30,728 nt of DNA, taken from a virus (taxonomy: Duplodnaviria; Heunggongvirae; Uroviricota; Caudoviricetes; Peduoviridae). The stretch lies in IMG/VR virus record IMGVR_UViG_638275546_000001, one strand, 5' to 3'. The position numbers and the translations under genes were made by a program. The stretch's first letter is position 1. Every line of letters begins with the position of its first letter. The notes below the pieces were generated by a model that was not told the DNA's origin, did no database searches, and was given only the letters and a program-made list of their open reading frames with translations. Positions 4,082 to 30,728 of this stretch are shown piece after piece.

Positions 4082-5155
4082 ATGCGCCAGGAAACCCGCT
4101 TTAAATTTAATGCCTACCTGTCCCGTGTTGCCGAACTGAACGGCATCGACGCCGGTGATGTGTCGAAAAAATTCACCGTTGAACCGTCGGTCACCCAGAC
4201 CCTGATGAACACCATGCAGGAGTCCTCTGATTTCCTGACCCGCATCAACATTGTGCCGGTCAGCGAAATGAAAGGGGAAAAAATTGGCATCGGTGTCACC
4301 GGCTCCATCGCCAGCACCACCGACACCGCCGGTGGCACCGAGCGTCAGCCGAAGGACTTCTCGAAGCTGGCGTCAAACAAGTACGAATGCGACCAGATTA
4401 ACTTCGATTTTTATATCCGCTACAAAACGCTTGACCTGTGGGCGCGTTATCAGGATTTCCAGCTCCGTGTCCGTAACGCCATTATCAAACGCCAGTCCCT
4501 TGATTTCATCATGGCCGGTTTTAACGGCGTGAAGCGTGCCGAAACCTCTGACCGCAGCAGCAATCCGATGCTGCAGGATGTGGCGGTCGGCTGGCTGCAG
4601 AAATACCGCAATGAAGCCCCGGCGCGCGTGATGAGCAAGGTCACTGACGAGGAAGGGCACACCACCTCTGAGGTCATCCGCGTGGGTAAGGGCGGTGATT
4701 ATGCCAGCCTCGATGCACTGGTGATGGATGCGACCAACAATCTGATTGAGCCGTGGTATCAGGAAGACCCTGACCTTGTGGTGATTGTGGGGCGTCAGCT
4801 GCTGGCGGACAAATATTTCCCCATCGTCAACAAGGAGCAGGACAACAGCGAAATGCTGGCCGCTGACGTCATCATCAGCCAGAAACGCATCGGTAACCTG
4901 CCGGCGGTACGCGTCCCGTACTTCCCGGCGGATGCGATGCTCATCACGAAGCTGGAAAACCTGTCCATCTACTACATGGATGACAGCCATCGCCGCGTGA
5001 TTGAGGAAAACCCGAAACTCGACCGCGTGGAGAACTACGAGTCAATGAACATTGATTACGTGGTGGAAGACTACGCCGCCGGTTGTCTGGTGGAAAAAAT
5101 TAAGGTCGGTGATTTCTCCACACCGGCTAAGGCGACCGAAGAGCCGGGAGCGTAA
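4082..5155 (+). CDS. N: Major capsid protein
   Basis: 357-aa ORF, ATG start, recognised as P2 gpN-like; follows scaffold gene. Confidence 0.92.
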   Translation: MRQETRFKFNAYLSRVAELNGIDAGDVSKKFTVEPSVTQTLMNTMQESSDFLTRINIVPVSEMKGEKIGIGVTGSIASTTDTAGGTERQPKDFSKLASNKYECDQINFDFYIRYKTLDLWARYQDFQLRVRNAIIKRQSLDFIMAGFNGVKRAETSDRSSNPMLQDVAVGWLQKYRNEAPARVMSKVTDEEGHTTSEVIRVGKGGDYASLDALVMDATNNLIEPWYQEDPDLVVIVGRQLLADKYFPIVNKEQDNSEMLAADVIISQKRIGNLPAVRVPYFPADAMLITKLENLSIYYMDDSHRRVIEENPKLDRVENYESMNIDYVVEDYAAGCLVEKIKVGDFSTPAKATEEPGA

Positions 5156-5158
5156 CCG

Positions 5159-5902
5159 ATGACGAGTCCCGCACAGCGCCACATGATGCGGGTCTCGGCA
5201 GCGATGACCGCGCAGCGGGAAGCCGCCCCGCTGCGACATGCAACTGTCTATGAGCAGATGCTGGTTAAGCTCGCCGCAGACCAGCGCACACTGAAAGCGA
5301 TTTATTCAAAAGAGCTTAAGGCCGCGAAAAAACGCGAACTGCTGCCGTTCTGGTTGCCGTGGGTGAACGGCGTGCTGGAGCAGGGCAAAGGTGCACAGGA
5401 TGACATTCTGATGACGGTCATGCTGTGGCGTCTGGATACCGGCGATATTGCCGGTGCGCTGGAGATTGCCCGTTATGCCCTGAAGTACGGTCTGACCATG
5501 CCGGGTAAACACCGCCGCACCCCGCCGTACATGTTCACCGAGGAGGTGGCGCTTGCGGCCATGCGCGCTCACGCTGCCGGTGAGTCTGTGAATCCCCGCC
5601 TGCTGACGGACACCCTTGAACTGACCGCCACGGCTGACATGCCTGATGAAGTGCGCGCAAAGCTGCACAAAATCACCGGTCTGTTTCTGCGTGACGCTGG
5701 TGATGCCGCAGGGGCGCTGGCGCACCTGCAACGTGCGACACAGCTCGACTGTCAGGCAGGCGTCAAAAAAGAGATTGAACGACTGGAGCGGGAGCTGAAA
5801 CCGAAGCCGGAGCCGCAGCCAAAAGCGGTCACCCGCGCCCCGCGTAAGACCCGGAGCGTGACACCGGCAAAACGTGGACGCCCGAAAAAGAAAGCCAGTT
5901 AA
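5159..5902 (+). CDS. M: Terminase small (endonuclease) subunit
   Basis: 247-aa ORF with basic proline-rich C-terminal tail; P2 gpM-like by sequence and position. Confidence 0.88.
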   Translation: MTSPAQRHMMRVSAAMTAQREAAPLRHATVYEQMLVKLAADQRTLKAIYSKELKAAKKRELLPFWLPWVNGVLEQGKGAQDDILMTVMLWRLDTGDIAGALEIARYALKYGLTMPGKHRRTPPYMFTEEVALAAMRAHAAGESVNPRLLTDTLELTATADMPDEVRAKLHKITGLFLRDAGDAAGALAHLQRATQLDCQAGVKKEIERLERELKPKPEPQPKAVTRAPRKTRSVTPAKRGRPKKKAS

Positions 5903-15285: not shown

Positions 15286-16065
15286 TTAAAATATCCAACT
15301 GATAAATCCACCTGAATACTTTTCACTAATTTTGATTGCATAAAGATCATGAAGAGTTATAAATAAATCATTATCTTCTTTGAAAATTAACTCCTCATAC
15401 TCTGCCATTATCAAATTATGCTGTGTTGTTAGTTTAGATATGTTATCTATTTCACTGGCAAGCATGGATTTGTTTACATTGGTGTGTGGATCCATGGCAA
15501 TATATTTCCGCATCAATGGAATTAGTTGATCAGGGTCTATATTTTTTGCATTTTCCTTTGCTTTTTTTTGTCTTTCTGAATAGATGGAGTTAATTGTGTT
15601 AGTGTGTTTTTTCGCCAGTCTCTTAAACTCTGGATATGAACCAGTAACTAATGCAAGCTCTTCGTACTTAAGGAATAAATCGATATTGCATTTTTTTACC
15701 GTCATTTCAAGATCTTCAACTCTTTTTTTTAACTCTTCATTTGTTTTAATAAGAGACATCGGGAGAACTTCATAATGTTGTCCTAATTCTGAATCAGGGC
15801 TCATTGCCATATGTACTATTTCATTATACATGAGCTGATAAGAAGCAGATAACTCTCCATACTTTAGAAATAGTTCATTATGTGAAGATGAACAAGAACT
15901 TTGTAATTTCATCATTGGCCTAAAGTAATCCTTTATAAACTCCTCCTGAAGATCTTGGTCTTTTTTGTAGCTCTCTAGGATTCCAGCAAAAAGAAATGAC
16001 CCTAAAGATATAGAGATTATGGATATTAGCAATTGACTAAGGAATGATTGTGTTTCATTACTCAT
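15286..16065 (-). CDS. Accessory (moron) protein at the Z/fun position: single-pass membrane protein of unknown function, candidate phage-exclusion protein
   Basis: 259-aa ORF with ATG start and AGGA Shine-Dalgarno; opposite strand to the flanking late genes; markedly AT-rich; N-terminal hydrophobic helix (about residues 8-30), Lys/Glu-rich soluble remainder with no motif I recognise. Confidence 0.75.
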   Translation of the reverse strand: MSNETQSFLSQLLISIISISLGSFLFAGILESYKKDQDLQEEFIKDYFRPMMKLQSSCSSSHNELFLKYGELSASYQLMYNEIVHMAMSPDSELGQHYEVLPMSLIKTNEELKKRVEDLEMTVKKCNIDLFLKYEELALVTGSYPEFKRLAKKHTNTINSIYSERQKKAKENAKNIDPDQLIPLMRKYIAMDPHTNVNKSMLASEIDNISKLTTQHNLIMAEYEELIFKEDNDLFITLHDLYAIKISEKYSGGFISWIF

Positions 16066-26850: not shown

Positions 26851-29125
26851 AGCCTCCGGGCGTTTTGTCCCTCCGTCAGCATTTGCCGCAGGCACCGGTA
26901 AGACGTTTACCGGTGCTTATGCATGGAACGCGCCACGCGAGGCCGTCGGGCGCGAAAGACCCCTTACACGTGACGAGATGCGTCAGGTGCAAGGTGTTTT
27001 ATCCACGATTAACCGCCTGCCTTACTTTTTGCGCTCGCTGTTTACTTCACGCTATGACTACATCCGGCGCAATAAAAGCCCGGTGCACGGGTTTTATTTC
27101 CTCACATCCACTTTTCAGCGTCGTTTATGGCCGCGCATTGAGCGCGTTAATCAGCGCCATGAAATGAACACCGACGCGTCGTTGCTGTTTCTGGCAGAGC
27201 GTGACCACTATGCGCGCCTGCCTGGAATGAATGACAAGGAACTGAAAAAGTTTGCCACCCGTATCTCATCGCAGCTTTTCATAATGTATGAGGAACTCTG
27301 CGATGCCTGGGTGGATGCGCATGGCGAGAAAGAATCACTGTTTACGGATGAGGCTCAGGATCACCTGTATGGTCATGTTGCTGGCGCTGCACGAGCTTTC
27401 AATATTTCCCCTCTCTACTGGAAAAAATACCGTAAAGGACAGATGACCACGAGGCAGGCTTATTCTGCCATTGCCCGTCTGTTTAACGATGAGTGGTGGA
27501 CTCATCAGCTTAAAGGCCAGCGTATGCGCTGGCATGAGGCGTTACTGATTGCTGTCGGGGAGGTCAATAAAGACCGTTCTCCTTATGCCAGTAAACATGC
27601 CATTCGTGATGTGCGTGCGCGCCGCCAGGCAAATCTGGAGTTTCTTAAATCATGTGACCTTGAAAACAGGGAAACCGGCGAGCGCATCGACCTTATCAGT
27701 AAGGTGATGGGCAGTATTTCTAATCCTGAAATTCGCCGGATGGAGCTGATGAACACCATTGCCGGTATTGAGCGTTACGCCGCCGCAGAGGGTGATGTGG
27801 GGATGTTTATCACGCTGACCACGCCGTCAAAGTATCACCCGACACGTCAGGTCGGAAAAGGAGAAAGTAAAACCGTCCAGCTTAATCACGGCTGGAACGA
27901 TGAGGCATTTAATCCGAAGGATGCGCAGCGTTATCTCTGCCGTATCTGGAGCCTGATGCGCACGGCATTCAAGGATAATGATTTACAGGTCTACGGTTTG
28001 CGTGTCGTCGAGCCACACCACGACGGAACGCCGCACTGGCATATGATGCTTTTTTGTAATCCACGCCAGCGTAACCAGATTATTGAAATCATGCGTCGCT
28101 ACGCGCTCAAAGAGGATGGAGACGAAAGAGGAGCCGCGCGAAACCGTTTTCAGGCAAAACATCTTAACCGGAGCGGTGCTGCGGGGTATATCGCGAAATA
28201 CATCTCAAAAAACATCGACGGCTATGCACTGGATGGTCAGCTCGATAACGATACCGGCAGGCCGCTGAAAGATACTGCTGCGGCTGTTACCGCATGGGCG
28301 TCAACGTGGCGCATCCCGCAATTTAAAACGGTTGGCCTGCCGACAATGGGGGCTTACCGTGAACTACGCAAATTGCCTCGTGGCGTCAGCATTGCTGATG
28401 AGTTTGACGAACGCGTTGAGGCTGCACGTGCCGCCGCAGACAGTGGTGATTTTGCGTTGTATATCAGCGCGCAGGGTGGGGCAAATGTTCCGCGTGATTG
28501 CCAGACTGTCAGAGTCGCCCGTAGCCCGTCGGATGACGTTAACGAGTACGAGGAAGAAGTCGAGAGAGTGGTCGGCATTTACGCGCCGCATCTCGGCGCG
28601 CGTCATATTCATATCACCAGAACGACGGACTGGCGCATTGTGCCGAAAGTTCCGGTCGTTGAGCCTTTGACTTTAAAAAGCGGCATCGCCGCGCCTCGGA
28701 GTCCTGTCAATAACTGTGGAAAGCTCACCGGTGGTGATACTTCGTTACCGGCTCCCACACCTTCTGAGCACGCCGCAGCAGTGCTTAATCTGGTTGATGA
28801 CGGTGTTATCGAATGGAATGACCCGGAGGTCGTGAGGGCGCTCAGGGGCGCATTAAAACACGGTCGGAGAACGCCAAACCGTCAGCAAAGAAACGGAAGC
28901 CCGTTAAAACCATATGAAATGGCACCATCGGCCAGACTGACCCGGTCGGAACGAATGCAAATTACCCGTATCCGTGTTGACCTTGCTCAAAAGGGTATCA
29001 GGCCGCAGCGATGGGAACTTGAGGCGCTGGCGCGTGGAGCAACCGTAAATTATGACGGGAAAAAATTCACGTATCCGGTTGCTGATGAGTGGCCGGGATT
29101 CTCAACAGTAATGGAGTGGAAATGA
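26840..29125 (+). CDS. A: Replication initiation protein A (rolling-circle nickase)
   Basis: Start at internal ATG (MAVKASGRFVPPSAF..., 761 aa); recognised as P2 gpA-like, with the conserved ...EPHHDGTPHWHMMLF... and ...AKYISKNIDGY... (active-site Tyr) motifs. Confidence 0.9.
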   Translation: MAVKASGRFVPPSAFAAGTGKTFTGAYAWNAPREAVGRERPLTRDEMRQVQGVLSTINRLPYFLRSLFTSRYDYIRRNKSPVHGFYFLTSTFQRRLWPRIERVNQRHEMNTDASLLFLAERDHYARLPGMNDKELKKFATRISSQLFIMYEELCDAWVDAHGEKESLFTDEAQDHLYGHVAGAARAFNISPLYWKKYRKGQMTTRQAYSAIARLFNDEWWTHQLKGQRMRWHEALLIAVGEVNKDRSPYASKHAIRDVRARRQANLEFLKSCDLENRETGERIDLISKVMGSISNPEIRRMELMNTIAGIERYAAAEGDVGMFITLTTPSKYHPTRQVGKGESKTVQLNHGWNDEAFNPKDAQRYLCRIWSLMRTAFKDNDLQVYGLRVVEPHHDGTPHWHMMLFCNPRQRNQIIEIMRRYALKEDGDERGAARNRFQAKHLNRSGAAGYIAKYISKNIDGYALDGQLDNDTGRPLKDTAAAVTAWASTWRIPQFKTVGLPTMGAYRELRKLPRGVSIADEFDERVEAARAAADSGDFALYISAQGGANVPRDCQTVRVARSPSDDVNEYEEEVERVVGIYAPHLGARHIHITRTTDWRIVPKVPVVEPLTLKSGIAAPRSPVNNCGKLTGGDTSLPAPTPSEHAAAVLNLVDDGVIEWNDPEVVRALRGALKHGRRTPNRQQRNGSPLKPYEMAPSARLTRSERMQITRIRVDLAQKGIRPQRWELEALARGATVNYDGKKFTYPVADEWPGFSTVMEWK

Positions 29126-29574
29126 TGGCAAAAATTCACGAGGTAAAGCTGCACGCAAAATATTTCGACCTTGTGCTGGAAGGAAAGAAACGTGCAGAGT
29201 TTCGGAAAAATGACCGTAATTATGAGCGCGGGGACACGCTGATTTTGCATGAATGGGTACAGGGTGTGTTTACGGGGCGAAAGGTTGAAGCCCGGATAAC
29301 AGATGTTACTGACCTGTCAGACTGGCTGGAAGATTATGTCTTGCTAAGTATTGAGCTGCTTAATACAGGCGCATATGAGATTGTGAACTGGAAAGAACTT
29401 AGTGAGCGTGGTCTGGTATTCAGAATTAATCATGAAATTATGCATCAGCTCGGTCTTGCTGTTATGTATGAGTCAGTGACAGGCCTGTCTGGCGGAGCAG
29501 TGGTTGCTGCGGATGGGATGTGGAGCTATTCAGATGAACAGGTGGAGTGTGCAAAGCAAAAAGGGTGGTTTTGA
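29122..29574 (+). CDS. Hypothetical protein, ASCH/PUA-like N-terminal domain (tentative)
   Basis: First ATG of ORF 29089..29574 (track start is GTG inside A); 150 aa; N-terminal MMAKIHEVKLHAKYFDLVLEGKKRAEFRKNDRNYERGDTLILHEW resembles ASCH-type small domains (weak, from memory); 3' end overlaps the convergent minus-strand gene by 45 nt. Confidence 0.55.
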   Translation: MMAKIHEVKLHAKYFDLVLEGKKRAEFRKNDRNYERGDTLILHEWVQGVFTGRKVEARITDVTDLSDWLEDYVLLSIELLNTGAYEIVNWKELSERGLVFRINHEIMHQLGLAVMYESVTGLSGGAVVAADGMWSYSDEQVECAKQKGWF

Positions 29575-30522
29575 AAATGCACAGAATACCAGGCGAGATA
29601 CCTCAGCATAAAACTTAAGGTCAGCCCCGTTTCTAAAGGACGTTAAAGCCTTGGGGTTATCAATAACAGAAGATAATAGGCGTAAATTTCGGGACTCTCC
29701 AACCTTTGTTTTCCCGGAATCATCCTTTTTATAAAGCCATACTGTAAGTTCTCTGGTATTTTCTCTATTTATATGATGTGGGTGAATTATTACATCATTG
29801 GATGTAATATCACCATATTCGTCTTTTTCTGAAACGCCAACAAACAATCCAATTTTCTCGTCAGCTAAGGCTGTAGATAAAATTGAAAACTTGATCGATT
29901 CTTCATCTAATCCATCAATATCATAAAAGTTATTGCTCTCCATTACTTTATAAACGGCTAAAGCATCTAGATTTCTCTTGATATGATCTTTTCTGCTACC
30001 GATTGCACGAGCAACCTGATGATATCGATCATTAGTCGGTGAGTTTGGGGAGGTGAGACCAAAAAGTTGCTCGATATAACGAGCCTTCGATAGAGGTTCC
30101 CATTGTTTGACACCAGTGATATGTCTGAAACCCAAATAAGGTAAAATTTCAGCTCTGGTATCTCTAACGATCACTGGTAATTTTTCTAGTGTACCTAGTT
30201 TATCTTTAGCGCTTTCGGCGATTTCTATCATCCGGGAGCTGGGTCTGTCGCACTCATATGGGTTATGAATAAGTTTAACTGCCGTTAAGCGACGGTTGCC
30301 TTCCACAACGGTGTACTTATCTCCCTCTTTAACCGCAATAAGAGGCTCGCCAGGAAAAAATCCATTTTCTGCGATTGCATTCATCAAGTCTTCAATAGAG
30401 GTTGTTAGAGCTATATGATTTAGCATTGCTTCTGGGGTACGTTCAACACCTTCAGGAAGACGTGGATTTTTTGTATCAAGCTCAAGTTTATTGAGGTCGA
30501 TGTAATCAAGGCTTTCTGTCAT
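29530..30522 (-). CDS. Accessory protein at the tin/old position: ParB N-terminal-like (ParB/Srx-fold) domain protein, candidate anti-phage defence nuclease
   Basis: ORF track 29530..30555 begins at a TTG; first ATG is at 30522 (MTESLDYIDLNKL..., 330 aa); N-terminal ~100 aa carry the ParB hallmarks (I-DL-KL...NPR...; hydrophobic core; GEPLIAV; ...YTVVEGNRRLTAVKLI, cf. ParB GERRxRA box); C-terminal ~200 aa unrecognised; AT-rich, opposite strand to the early operon. Confidence 0.75.
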   Translation of the reverse strand: MTESLDYIDLNKLELDTKNPRLPEGVERTPEAMLNHIALTTSIEDLMNAIAENGFFPGEPLIAVKEGDKYTVVEGNRRLTAVKLIHNPYECDRPSSRMIEIAESAKDKLGTLEKLPVIVRDTRAEILPYLGFRHITGVKQWEPLSKARYIEQLFGLTSPNSPTNDRYHQVARAIGSRKDHIKRNLDALAVYKVMESNNFYDIDGLDEESIKFSILSTALADEKIGLFVGVSEKDEYGDITSNDVIIHPHHINRENTRELTVWLYKKDDSGKTKVGESRNLRLLSSVIDNPKALTSFRNGADLKFYAEVSRLVFCAFSKPPFLLCTLHLFI

Positions 30523-30709
30523 AACTCTAATCTCATTAGATATGGTGATATGCAAAGATTAACACTGGAGTTAAACGTAGGCTAGAACTGCAATTATGTG
30601 CATTAAAATGCATGCGTAAGTAACTCGCTAAAATGAAGCCATAAACTCACAGTGGTGCTATGAATAATATGTTATGCAACTGCATTAAAACCGACCCATG
30701 AAGCGGGCG

Positions 30710-30728
30710 GGCGAGGCGGGGAAAGCAC
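30710..30728. repeat. cos: Right copy of 19-nt cohesive end (cos)
   Basis: Exact repeat of 1..19. Confidence 0.85.

Follow-up and report, generated by a model that had tools for sequence, protein, structure and literature searches.

The right-end ParB-like gene of Yersinia phage L-413C is probably the remnant of a three-gene restriction–modification-like cassette

The window analysed here, a stretch of 30,728 nucleotides, is Yersinia phage L-413C, a complete P2-like (Peduovirus) genome with cos at its end. Its last 1.2 kb has a GC fraction of 0.38–0.43, against about 0.51–0.63 in the structural and replication backbone, and carries one minus-strand open reading frame (29530..30522). The 330-aa product was identified by exact-sequence look-up as 'hypothetical protein L-413Cp40' (NP_839889.1; UniProt Q858T2). 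An AT-rich right-end island with this single minus-strand ORF, overlapping the preceding gene by 45 nt, had been described in the original prediction and is confirmed by the ORF list and the GC content. The features of the island, in window coordinates, are as follows.

29122..29574, plus strand: ASCH/DUF3850 + DUF7415 gene (orf91-like), a backbone gene that borders the island on its left (Pfam).
29530..30522, minus strand: L-413Cp40 ORF (330 aa and a stop codon), a ParB-like gene truncated at its 3' end (ORF list and translation).
29533..29613, minus strand: 27 junction-created codons, FYAEVSRLVFCAFSKPPFLLCTLHLFI, foreign to the family; read antisense through the small-ORF stump and the last part of the ASCH gene.
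29577..29618, plus strand: 13-codon stump, MHRIPGEIPQHKT and stop codon, of a 77-aa ORF (translations compared).
29614..29615, no strand: deletion junction, CATAAAACT joined to TAAGGTC, with the exact 2-bp microhomology CT (blastn against the SF-088 prophage and base-by-base reading).
29614..30522, minus strand: codons 1–303, the authentic ParB-like part, comprising the ParB/Srx N-domain, an HTH-like middle and a helical body.
30523..30709, no strand: non-coding DNA upstream of the ParB-like gene, as far as cos, where the native promoter of the former operon presumably lies.
30710..30728, no strand: right cohesive end, GGCGAGGCGGGGAAAGCAC (read from the sequence).

The gene at the left border was assigned using Pfam (DUF3850, 1e-17; DUF7415, 9.8e-13; ASCH, 1.9e-10) and is 93–96% identical across many P2-like phages. 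In intact relatives it is followed by the 77-aa CDS, annotated in NC_049457 and NZ_CP012635. At the other end of the island, a promoter scan of positions 30523–30709 gave no σ70 consensus site, with counts not above those of shuffled controls. The terminal string is presumably the P2 19-nt cos end. The same string also terminates the cos-proximal inserts in Table S2 of Rousset et al. (2022).

P2 DNA aligns with the backbone portion only (bases 1–446 of the 1,829-base right-end query), and the cargo part has no similarity to P2. The cargo is common to only five of the 69 matching phage records. The gene is foreign AT-rich cargo and lies in the variable tin/old ('TO') hotspot that separates gene A from cos. 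The placement of the gene in the tin/old position, at a site of variable content, was thus correctly anticipated.

L-413Cp40 was compared with curated profiles. PF02195 (ParB_N) gave 16.2 bits (E = 0.011), short of its curated cutoff of 26.3 bits, TIGR00180 gave 24.6 bits (E = 1.8e-5), below its cutoff of 58.45, and the Noc profile matched far under its own cutoff. A precomputed PF02195 match is present in many family members. The ParB_N match of L-413Cp40 is sub-threshold, yet consistent with membership of the ParB/Srx superfamily. The protein has a ParB/Srx fold and carries the GxxRxxA arginine motif, and both the NPR motif and GxxRxxA (G75-N-R-R-L-T-A81) are invariant or nearly so among 67 aligned homologues of 365–392 aa. 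In all, 887 homologues were found at E < 1e-5, and the phrog_3694 profile matched with E = 2.4e-150. The fold similarity to Spo0J, KorB and SopB extends over the DNA-binding domain. A sequence search of solved structures with the family profile returned a single match, ParB (4umk, E = 0.007).

The ParB-like N-terminus of the original prediction therefore stands, with profile scores below threshold. So does its statement that the protein is not of OLD type: no OLD or Tin family appeared in the Pfam, NCBIfam or PADLOC output for L-413Cp40. The C-terminal ~200 residues had been proposed to form a separate effector or sensor domain, and this proposal has to be given up. The layout is that of ParB, an N-domain followed by an HTH-type/helical body with no separate effector fused, and the region ends in a tail made by a junction.

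The closest relative is the P2-like prophage of E. coli SF-088 (NZ_CP012635), which carries an extra 2,576 bp at window position ~29615. By blastn, window positions 28501–29618 correspond to positions 812–1929 of the SF-088 prophage locus (L047) and positions 29611–30728 to positions 4498–5615, each block with one mismatch in 1,118 bases (99.9% identity). The second block includes the whole of the non-coding region 30523..30709. Phage vB_EcoM-12474III splits the window at the same place (~29611–29618), with the two blocks 2.6 kb apart and the flanks 94% and 99.5% identical (blastn). Missing from L-413C are 64 of the 77 codons of the small ORF, the complete genes for a C5 methylase and for a 330-aa partner, and the final 69 codons of the ParB-like gene. 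The 8-bp overlap of the blastn blocks was considered as a longer junction microhomology and rejected, since it is imperfect and only the dinucleotide CT is exactly common to both parental sites. A junction at CT alone is expected of illegitimate recombination.

Residues 1–303 of L-413Cp40 are identical to those of the SF-088 protein, with no amino-acid change, and divergence begins at residue 304. The 5' 81% of the gene, which encodes 372 aa when intact, is thus retained. After residue 303, L-413Cp40 continues with FYAEVSRLVFCAFSKPPFLLCTLHLFI in place of the native VAYQLTEDL...DDEDF. The new 27-residue tail is hydrophobic (mean Kyte–Doolittle value 1.21, versus −0.13 for the native tail). Of the 376 positions of the phrog_3694 profile, L-413Cp40 covers only 3–313. 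The 45-nt convergent overlap with the ASCH gene arises because the frame runs on for 27 codons past the junction into ASCH-gene antisense. As the two flanks are almost without substitutions, the deletion must be recent.

The junction is known from one record only and might in principle be a sequencing or assembly artefact, the real phage carrying an intact cassette. We regard this as very improbable. The deposited genome is 30,728 bp, equal to the window and running from cos to cos, and the clean break, the 2-bp microhomology and the perfect flanks fit a true illegitimate-recombination deletion. Deletions in the non-essential tin/old region are, moreover, classical for P2.

The segment lost from the ParB-like protein is as conserved as the N-domain: the mean top-residue frequency is 0.665 for residues 304–372 and 0.653 for the N-domain, and 16 columns of the former are at least 90% conserved. 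In a pLDDT-90 model, it forms two long helices (residues 311–336 and 341–364). The homologues are 365–392 aa long with this conserved C-terminal helical hairpin, of which L-413Cp40, keeping residues 1–303, has nothing. By analogy with ParB, KorB and Noc, the lost C-terminus would be a dimerization or closure element, or might contact the partner.

The intact cassette consists of the 372-aa ParB-like gene, the 330-aa partner gene, which overlaps it stop to start, and a convergent C5 cytosine DNA methyltransferase gene (Pfam DNA_methylase, 3.7e-62). In vB_EcoM-12474III, likewise, the gene after the homologous 372-aa CDS encodes a 330-aa hypothetical protein, and next comes a C5 DNA methyltransferase gene in convergent orientation. 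A total of 46 related loci from phages, IMG/VR contigs and Methylomonas and Burkholderia chromosomes were compared. Five of them stop at a contig edge, and the trio is complete in all 41 loci with enough flank. The linkage extends to the distant Wphi branch, in which the ParB-like protein (gp98) is 32–34% and the partner (gp96) 25% identical; Mth, the Wphi methylase, shares 98% identity with its counterpart in the SF-088/12474III cassette. Wphi and the homologues in Yersinia phage HQ103 have the same trio architecture in the same hotspot, with intact loci. The methylase gene of HQ103 is present, although unannotated. Members of the L-413Cp40 family are subunits of an obligate module of three genes. 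In the window itself neither the partner nor the methylase is found, and the deletion junction sits in their place. A single-gene defence or exclusion determinant, as originally proposed, is contradicted both by the 2,576-bp deletion and by the complete trio in the informative loci.

The partner family has an invariant signature, GDxGxD...GQCGAQE..WPxK. This signature resembles the Mrr catalytic motif, with G replacing K. The partner probably has a winged helix and a PD-(D/E)xK restriction-endonuclease fold and is a putative nuclease. A sequence search of solved structures with the partner profile gave nothing meaningful.

The gene neighbourhood also bears on a reading of L-413Cp40 as a partition-type ParB that keeps the prophage as a plasmid. 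Such a role would suit the fold similarity to Spo0J, KorB and SopB, DNA-binding domain included, and source names such as ParB/RepB/Spo0J and 'chromosome partitioning protein ParB'; putative partition systems in the TO hotspot are also mentioned by Rousset et al. (2022). The partition cassette in that work is, however, StbA + Plasmid_stab_B, and the L-413Cp40-type gene is entered separately as 'DNA_methylase + hypothetical + ParBc'. The constant neighbours of the gene encode an REase-fold protein and a C5 methylase, never ParA, the TIGR00180 and Noc scores are far under the cutoffs and the top defence-library matches are PD-Lambda-5_A and PDC-M38A. A partition function is accordingly hardly credible. 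Membership of the ParABS family was rejected on the neighbours, which in all related loci are nuclease-like and methylase genes. Compared with the canonical ParB-family CTPase clamps (Spo0J/ParB, KorB, Noc and PadC), the L-413Cp40 family lacks a ParA partner, has N in place of the glutamate of GERR and lies in a context of methylase and nuclease-like genes; the window copy additionally lacks the C-terminal helices.

Among 5,426 complete E. coli genomes, 36 contain the full-length intact cassette with an identity of at least 99%. At least 1,000 contigs encode the intact 372-aa protein. Hosts of the cassette also include Methylomonas, Burkholderia, Yersinia and Klebsiella. The exact 330-aa L-413Cp40 product, by comparison, was found on one contig only. 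A 651-base probe across the L-413C junction reached 80% coverage in none of these 5,426 genomes, and the right-end query did so in none of 50,697 phage records.

A rival idea is that the truncated protein is active alone, either as a stand-alone ParB-like NTPase/nuclease excluding phages or as a dominant-negative decoy against the homologous ParB/nuclease complex. As a decoy it would help a methylase-less phage in hosts lysogenic for intact relatives. The open 330-codon frame, the upstream region 99.9% identical to that of a functional-looking allele and the complete NPR and GNRRLTA motifs and HTH-like middle are in keeping with such activity, and other defence systems do employ ParB_N-only subunits, such as GmrS1 alongside GmrSD2. 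However, with no change in residues 1–303 and one nucleotide mismatch per 1.1 kb the deletion is very recent, and the intact 330-codon frame is therefore no sign of selection on the remnant. In addition, the ParB-like gene stands without its partners in none of the 41 loci, L-413C alone carries the truncated allele and the conserved 69-residue C-terminus has been swapped for a hydrophobic nonsense tail. We consider activity of the truncated protein alone to be unlikely. It is also quite doubtful that the protein is expressed with a use of its own, whether as a decoy that disables the SF-088-type complex and lets L-413C infect such lysogens or as a DNA-binding exclusion factor.

The ancestral arrangement has been catalogued: 'DNA_methylase + hypothetical + ParBc' occurs many times among the P2 hotspot arrangements in Table S5A of Rousset et al. 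(2022), and the table of tested systems in the same work contains no methylase-containing entry. The catalogued cassette (SF-088, O145:H28 strains and vB_EcoM-12474III) shares gene, locus and upstream region with L-413C. The DNA retained in L-413C is 99.5–99.9% identical to it, and L-413C has 2,576 bp fewer. A literature search of papers other than the genome paper of Garcia et al. (2008) yielded none that characterizes the trio or notes the truncation in L-413C.

A match to an already characterized defence family, a possibility raised in the original prediction, was obtained at the domain level, and the rest of the protein is unmatched. Residues 5–158 of L-413Cp40 align with positions 4–166 of the 466 positions of the PADLOC profile PD-Lambda-5_A (best E = 6e-23), so that the ParB-type N-terminal ~160 aa are homologous to those of PD-lambda-5. 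The PADLOC candidate PDC-M38A matches residues 41–309. PD-lambda-5 is a validated broad anti-phage system, listed as 'ParB/HEPN, methyltransferase' and described as a highly compacted prophage RM+Abi system, the cloning of which required a host deleted for the mrr region (Vassallo et al., 2022). The PD-Lambda-5_A match of the intact 372-aa protein is equally partial and does not amount to the full-length protein of ~430–500 aa with ParB and HEPN parts. L-413Cp40 has no HEPN domain, and the methylase that would adjoin it is deleted from the window. PD-Lambda-5_B is absent among the best 25 PADLOC matches of the C5 methylase of the ancestral cassette. Both systems are prophage-borne and methyltransferase-linked, whereas the ancestral cassette has a separate REase-fold protein instead of a detectable HEPN domain. 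Full membership of PD-lambda-5 was rejected, with only the N-terminal third aligning and no HEPN. Since the N-domain and the methylase link are common to both and HEPN is absent, the cassette is a relative of PD-lambda-5 by domain and logic and not a member.

Operons of a ParB nuclease, a HEPN (MAE_28990) protein and a DNA methylase have been described (Anantharaman et al., 2013). A search for HEPN prompted by that work found none in the ParB-like C-terminus or in the 330-aa partner. These operons and the GmrSD/DUF262 Type IV enzymes resemble the cassette in that a ParB_N NTPase-like domain is paired with a nuclease, fused or split. The traits of GmrSD/DUF262 are missing here, with no DGQQR/DUF262 signature, HNH, DUF1524 or HEPN. 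As a further difference from GmrSD/DUF262, the target would be unmodified and not modified DNA, as the linked methylase suggests.

We put the probability at roughly 85% that the ParB-like ORF is the remnant of a three-gene RM-like cassette after a single 2,576-bp deletion and not a new single-gene defence. In the ancestor, the C5 methylase would mark and protect self DNA and the winged-helix/REase-fold partner would cut unmethylated DNA. For the ParB-like subunit two roles are conceivable, NTP-dependent binding or scanning of DNA, or the activity of a second (ParB-type) nuclease. NTP-dependent DNA binding is established for ParB, KorB and Noc. In the L-413C lineage, one illegitimate-recombination deletion at the 2-bp microhomology removed the methylase and the putative nuclease along with the ParB tail. 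Were restriction active, a deletion confined to the methylase would be lethal, and its joint loss with the nuclease would offer a viable route. Speculatively, the advantage of losing the cassette may have been a smaller genome or, in new hosts, evasion of m5C-dependent restriction (McrBC/Mrr).

Having lost the nuclease and the methylase as well as its conserved C-terminus, the remnant is presumed to be without defence function, and we infer that it is most probably inactive as a defence. As a counterpoint, it keeps an open 330-codon frame, the native upstream region and a complete N-domain and HTH-like body. Judged from these sequence features, it may be expressed and may have some DNA or NTP binding.

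A false lead is thereby removed: the apparent compact single-protein defence is a deletion stump, which if cloned alone would probably have no effect. The deletion accounts for two oddities of the L-413C map, namely the 45-nt overlap and a genome ~2.6 kb shorter than the closest prophage relative. The intact ancestor lies outside the window as a widespread, tightly linked and catalogued trio that has only the N-domain in common with PD-lambda-5. Should an NTP switch of the ParB type direct the restriction nuclease, the trio would be a distinct way to build an RM system. L-413C, which lacks the cassette, and the SF-088 prophage, which has it, would then make a natural near-isogenic pair.

The plague-diagnostic phage L-413C was compared with the prophage of Escherichia coli SF-088 (NZ_CP012635). 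The two were 99.9-100% identical at three points, namely either flank of the right-end deletion and the Z/fun locus, and the figure covers these only. The matching prophages reside in E. coli strains isolated from extra-intestinal sites in humans (SF-088, M1/5, SCU-176 and others). Within the phage collection, nothing exceeded ~96.5% identity to L-413C across the first 25 kb.

Two genes of L-413C associated with the hotspots are as follows.

15286-16065, minus strand: 259-aa ORF in the Z/fun position, between G and FI
29122-29574, plus strand: orf91-like backbone gene, ASCH/DUF3850 domain plus DUF7415

The second P2 hotspot, between G and FI, is occupied here by the 259-aa ORF, which is AT-rich (GC ~0.33) and encodes a hydrophobic N-terminus. 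Searches of Pfam and PADLOC gave zero matches for this ORF, and neither DNA nor tblastn matches were found in 50,697 phage records. Among the 5,426 complete genomes of E. coli searched, 13 had it at 99-100% identity, all carrying the same SF-088-type prophages. The ORF is the intact, unexplored cargo gene of L-413C. The orf91-like gene lies immediately inside the border of the tin/old hotspot and is kept across P2-like phages; the ASCH part of its product is related to 'RNA-binding protein' families in PHROGs.

The cassette genes considered below are numbered within their own loci (L001, SF-088/vB_EcoM-12474III-type cassette; L002, phage Wphi; L003, Yersinia phage HQ103, NC_070908).

L001 3812-4804: partner protein, the putative endonuclease
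L002 2331-3266: Wphi mth, C5 methylase (counterpart L001 2873-3808)
L003 2338-3279: unannotated C5 DNA methylase gene

In the alignment of the partner family (A3), GDxGxD...GQCGAQE..WPxK is invariant. This putative active site resembles an Mrr-type PD-(D/E)xK site with glycine replacing the canonical lysine. A conserved lysine lies ~10 residues past the substituted position, in a low-confidence loop of the model (residues 239-249, pLDDT <50).

The HQ103 methylase gene (76% identity over the full length) occupies an interval in which the deposited record shows no gene, although the ParB-like and partner genes beside it are annotated. The methylases of Wphi and of the SF-088/vB_EcoM-12474III cassette share 98% identity, whereas the adjoining ParB-like proteins are only 32% and the nuclease-like proteins only 25% identical. 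This pairing of a near-identical methylase with two very divergent restriction pairs suggests that modules have been shuffled.
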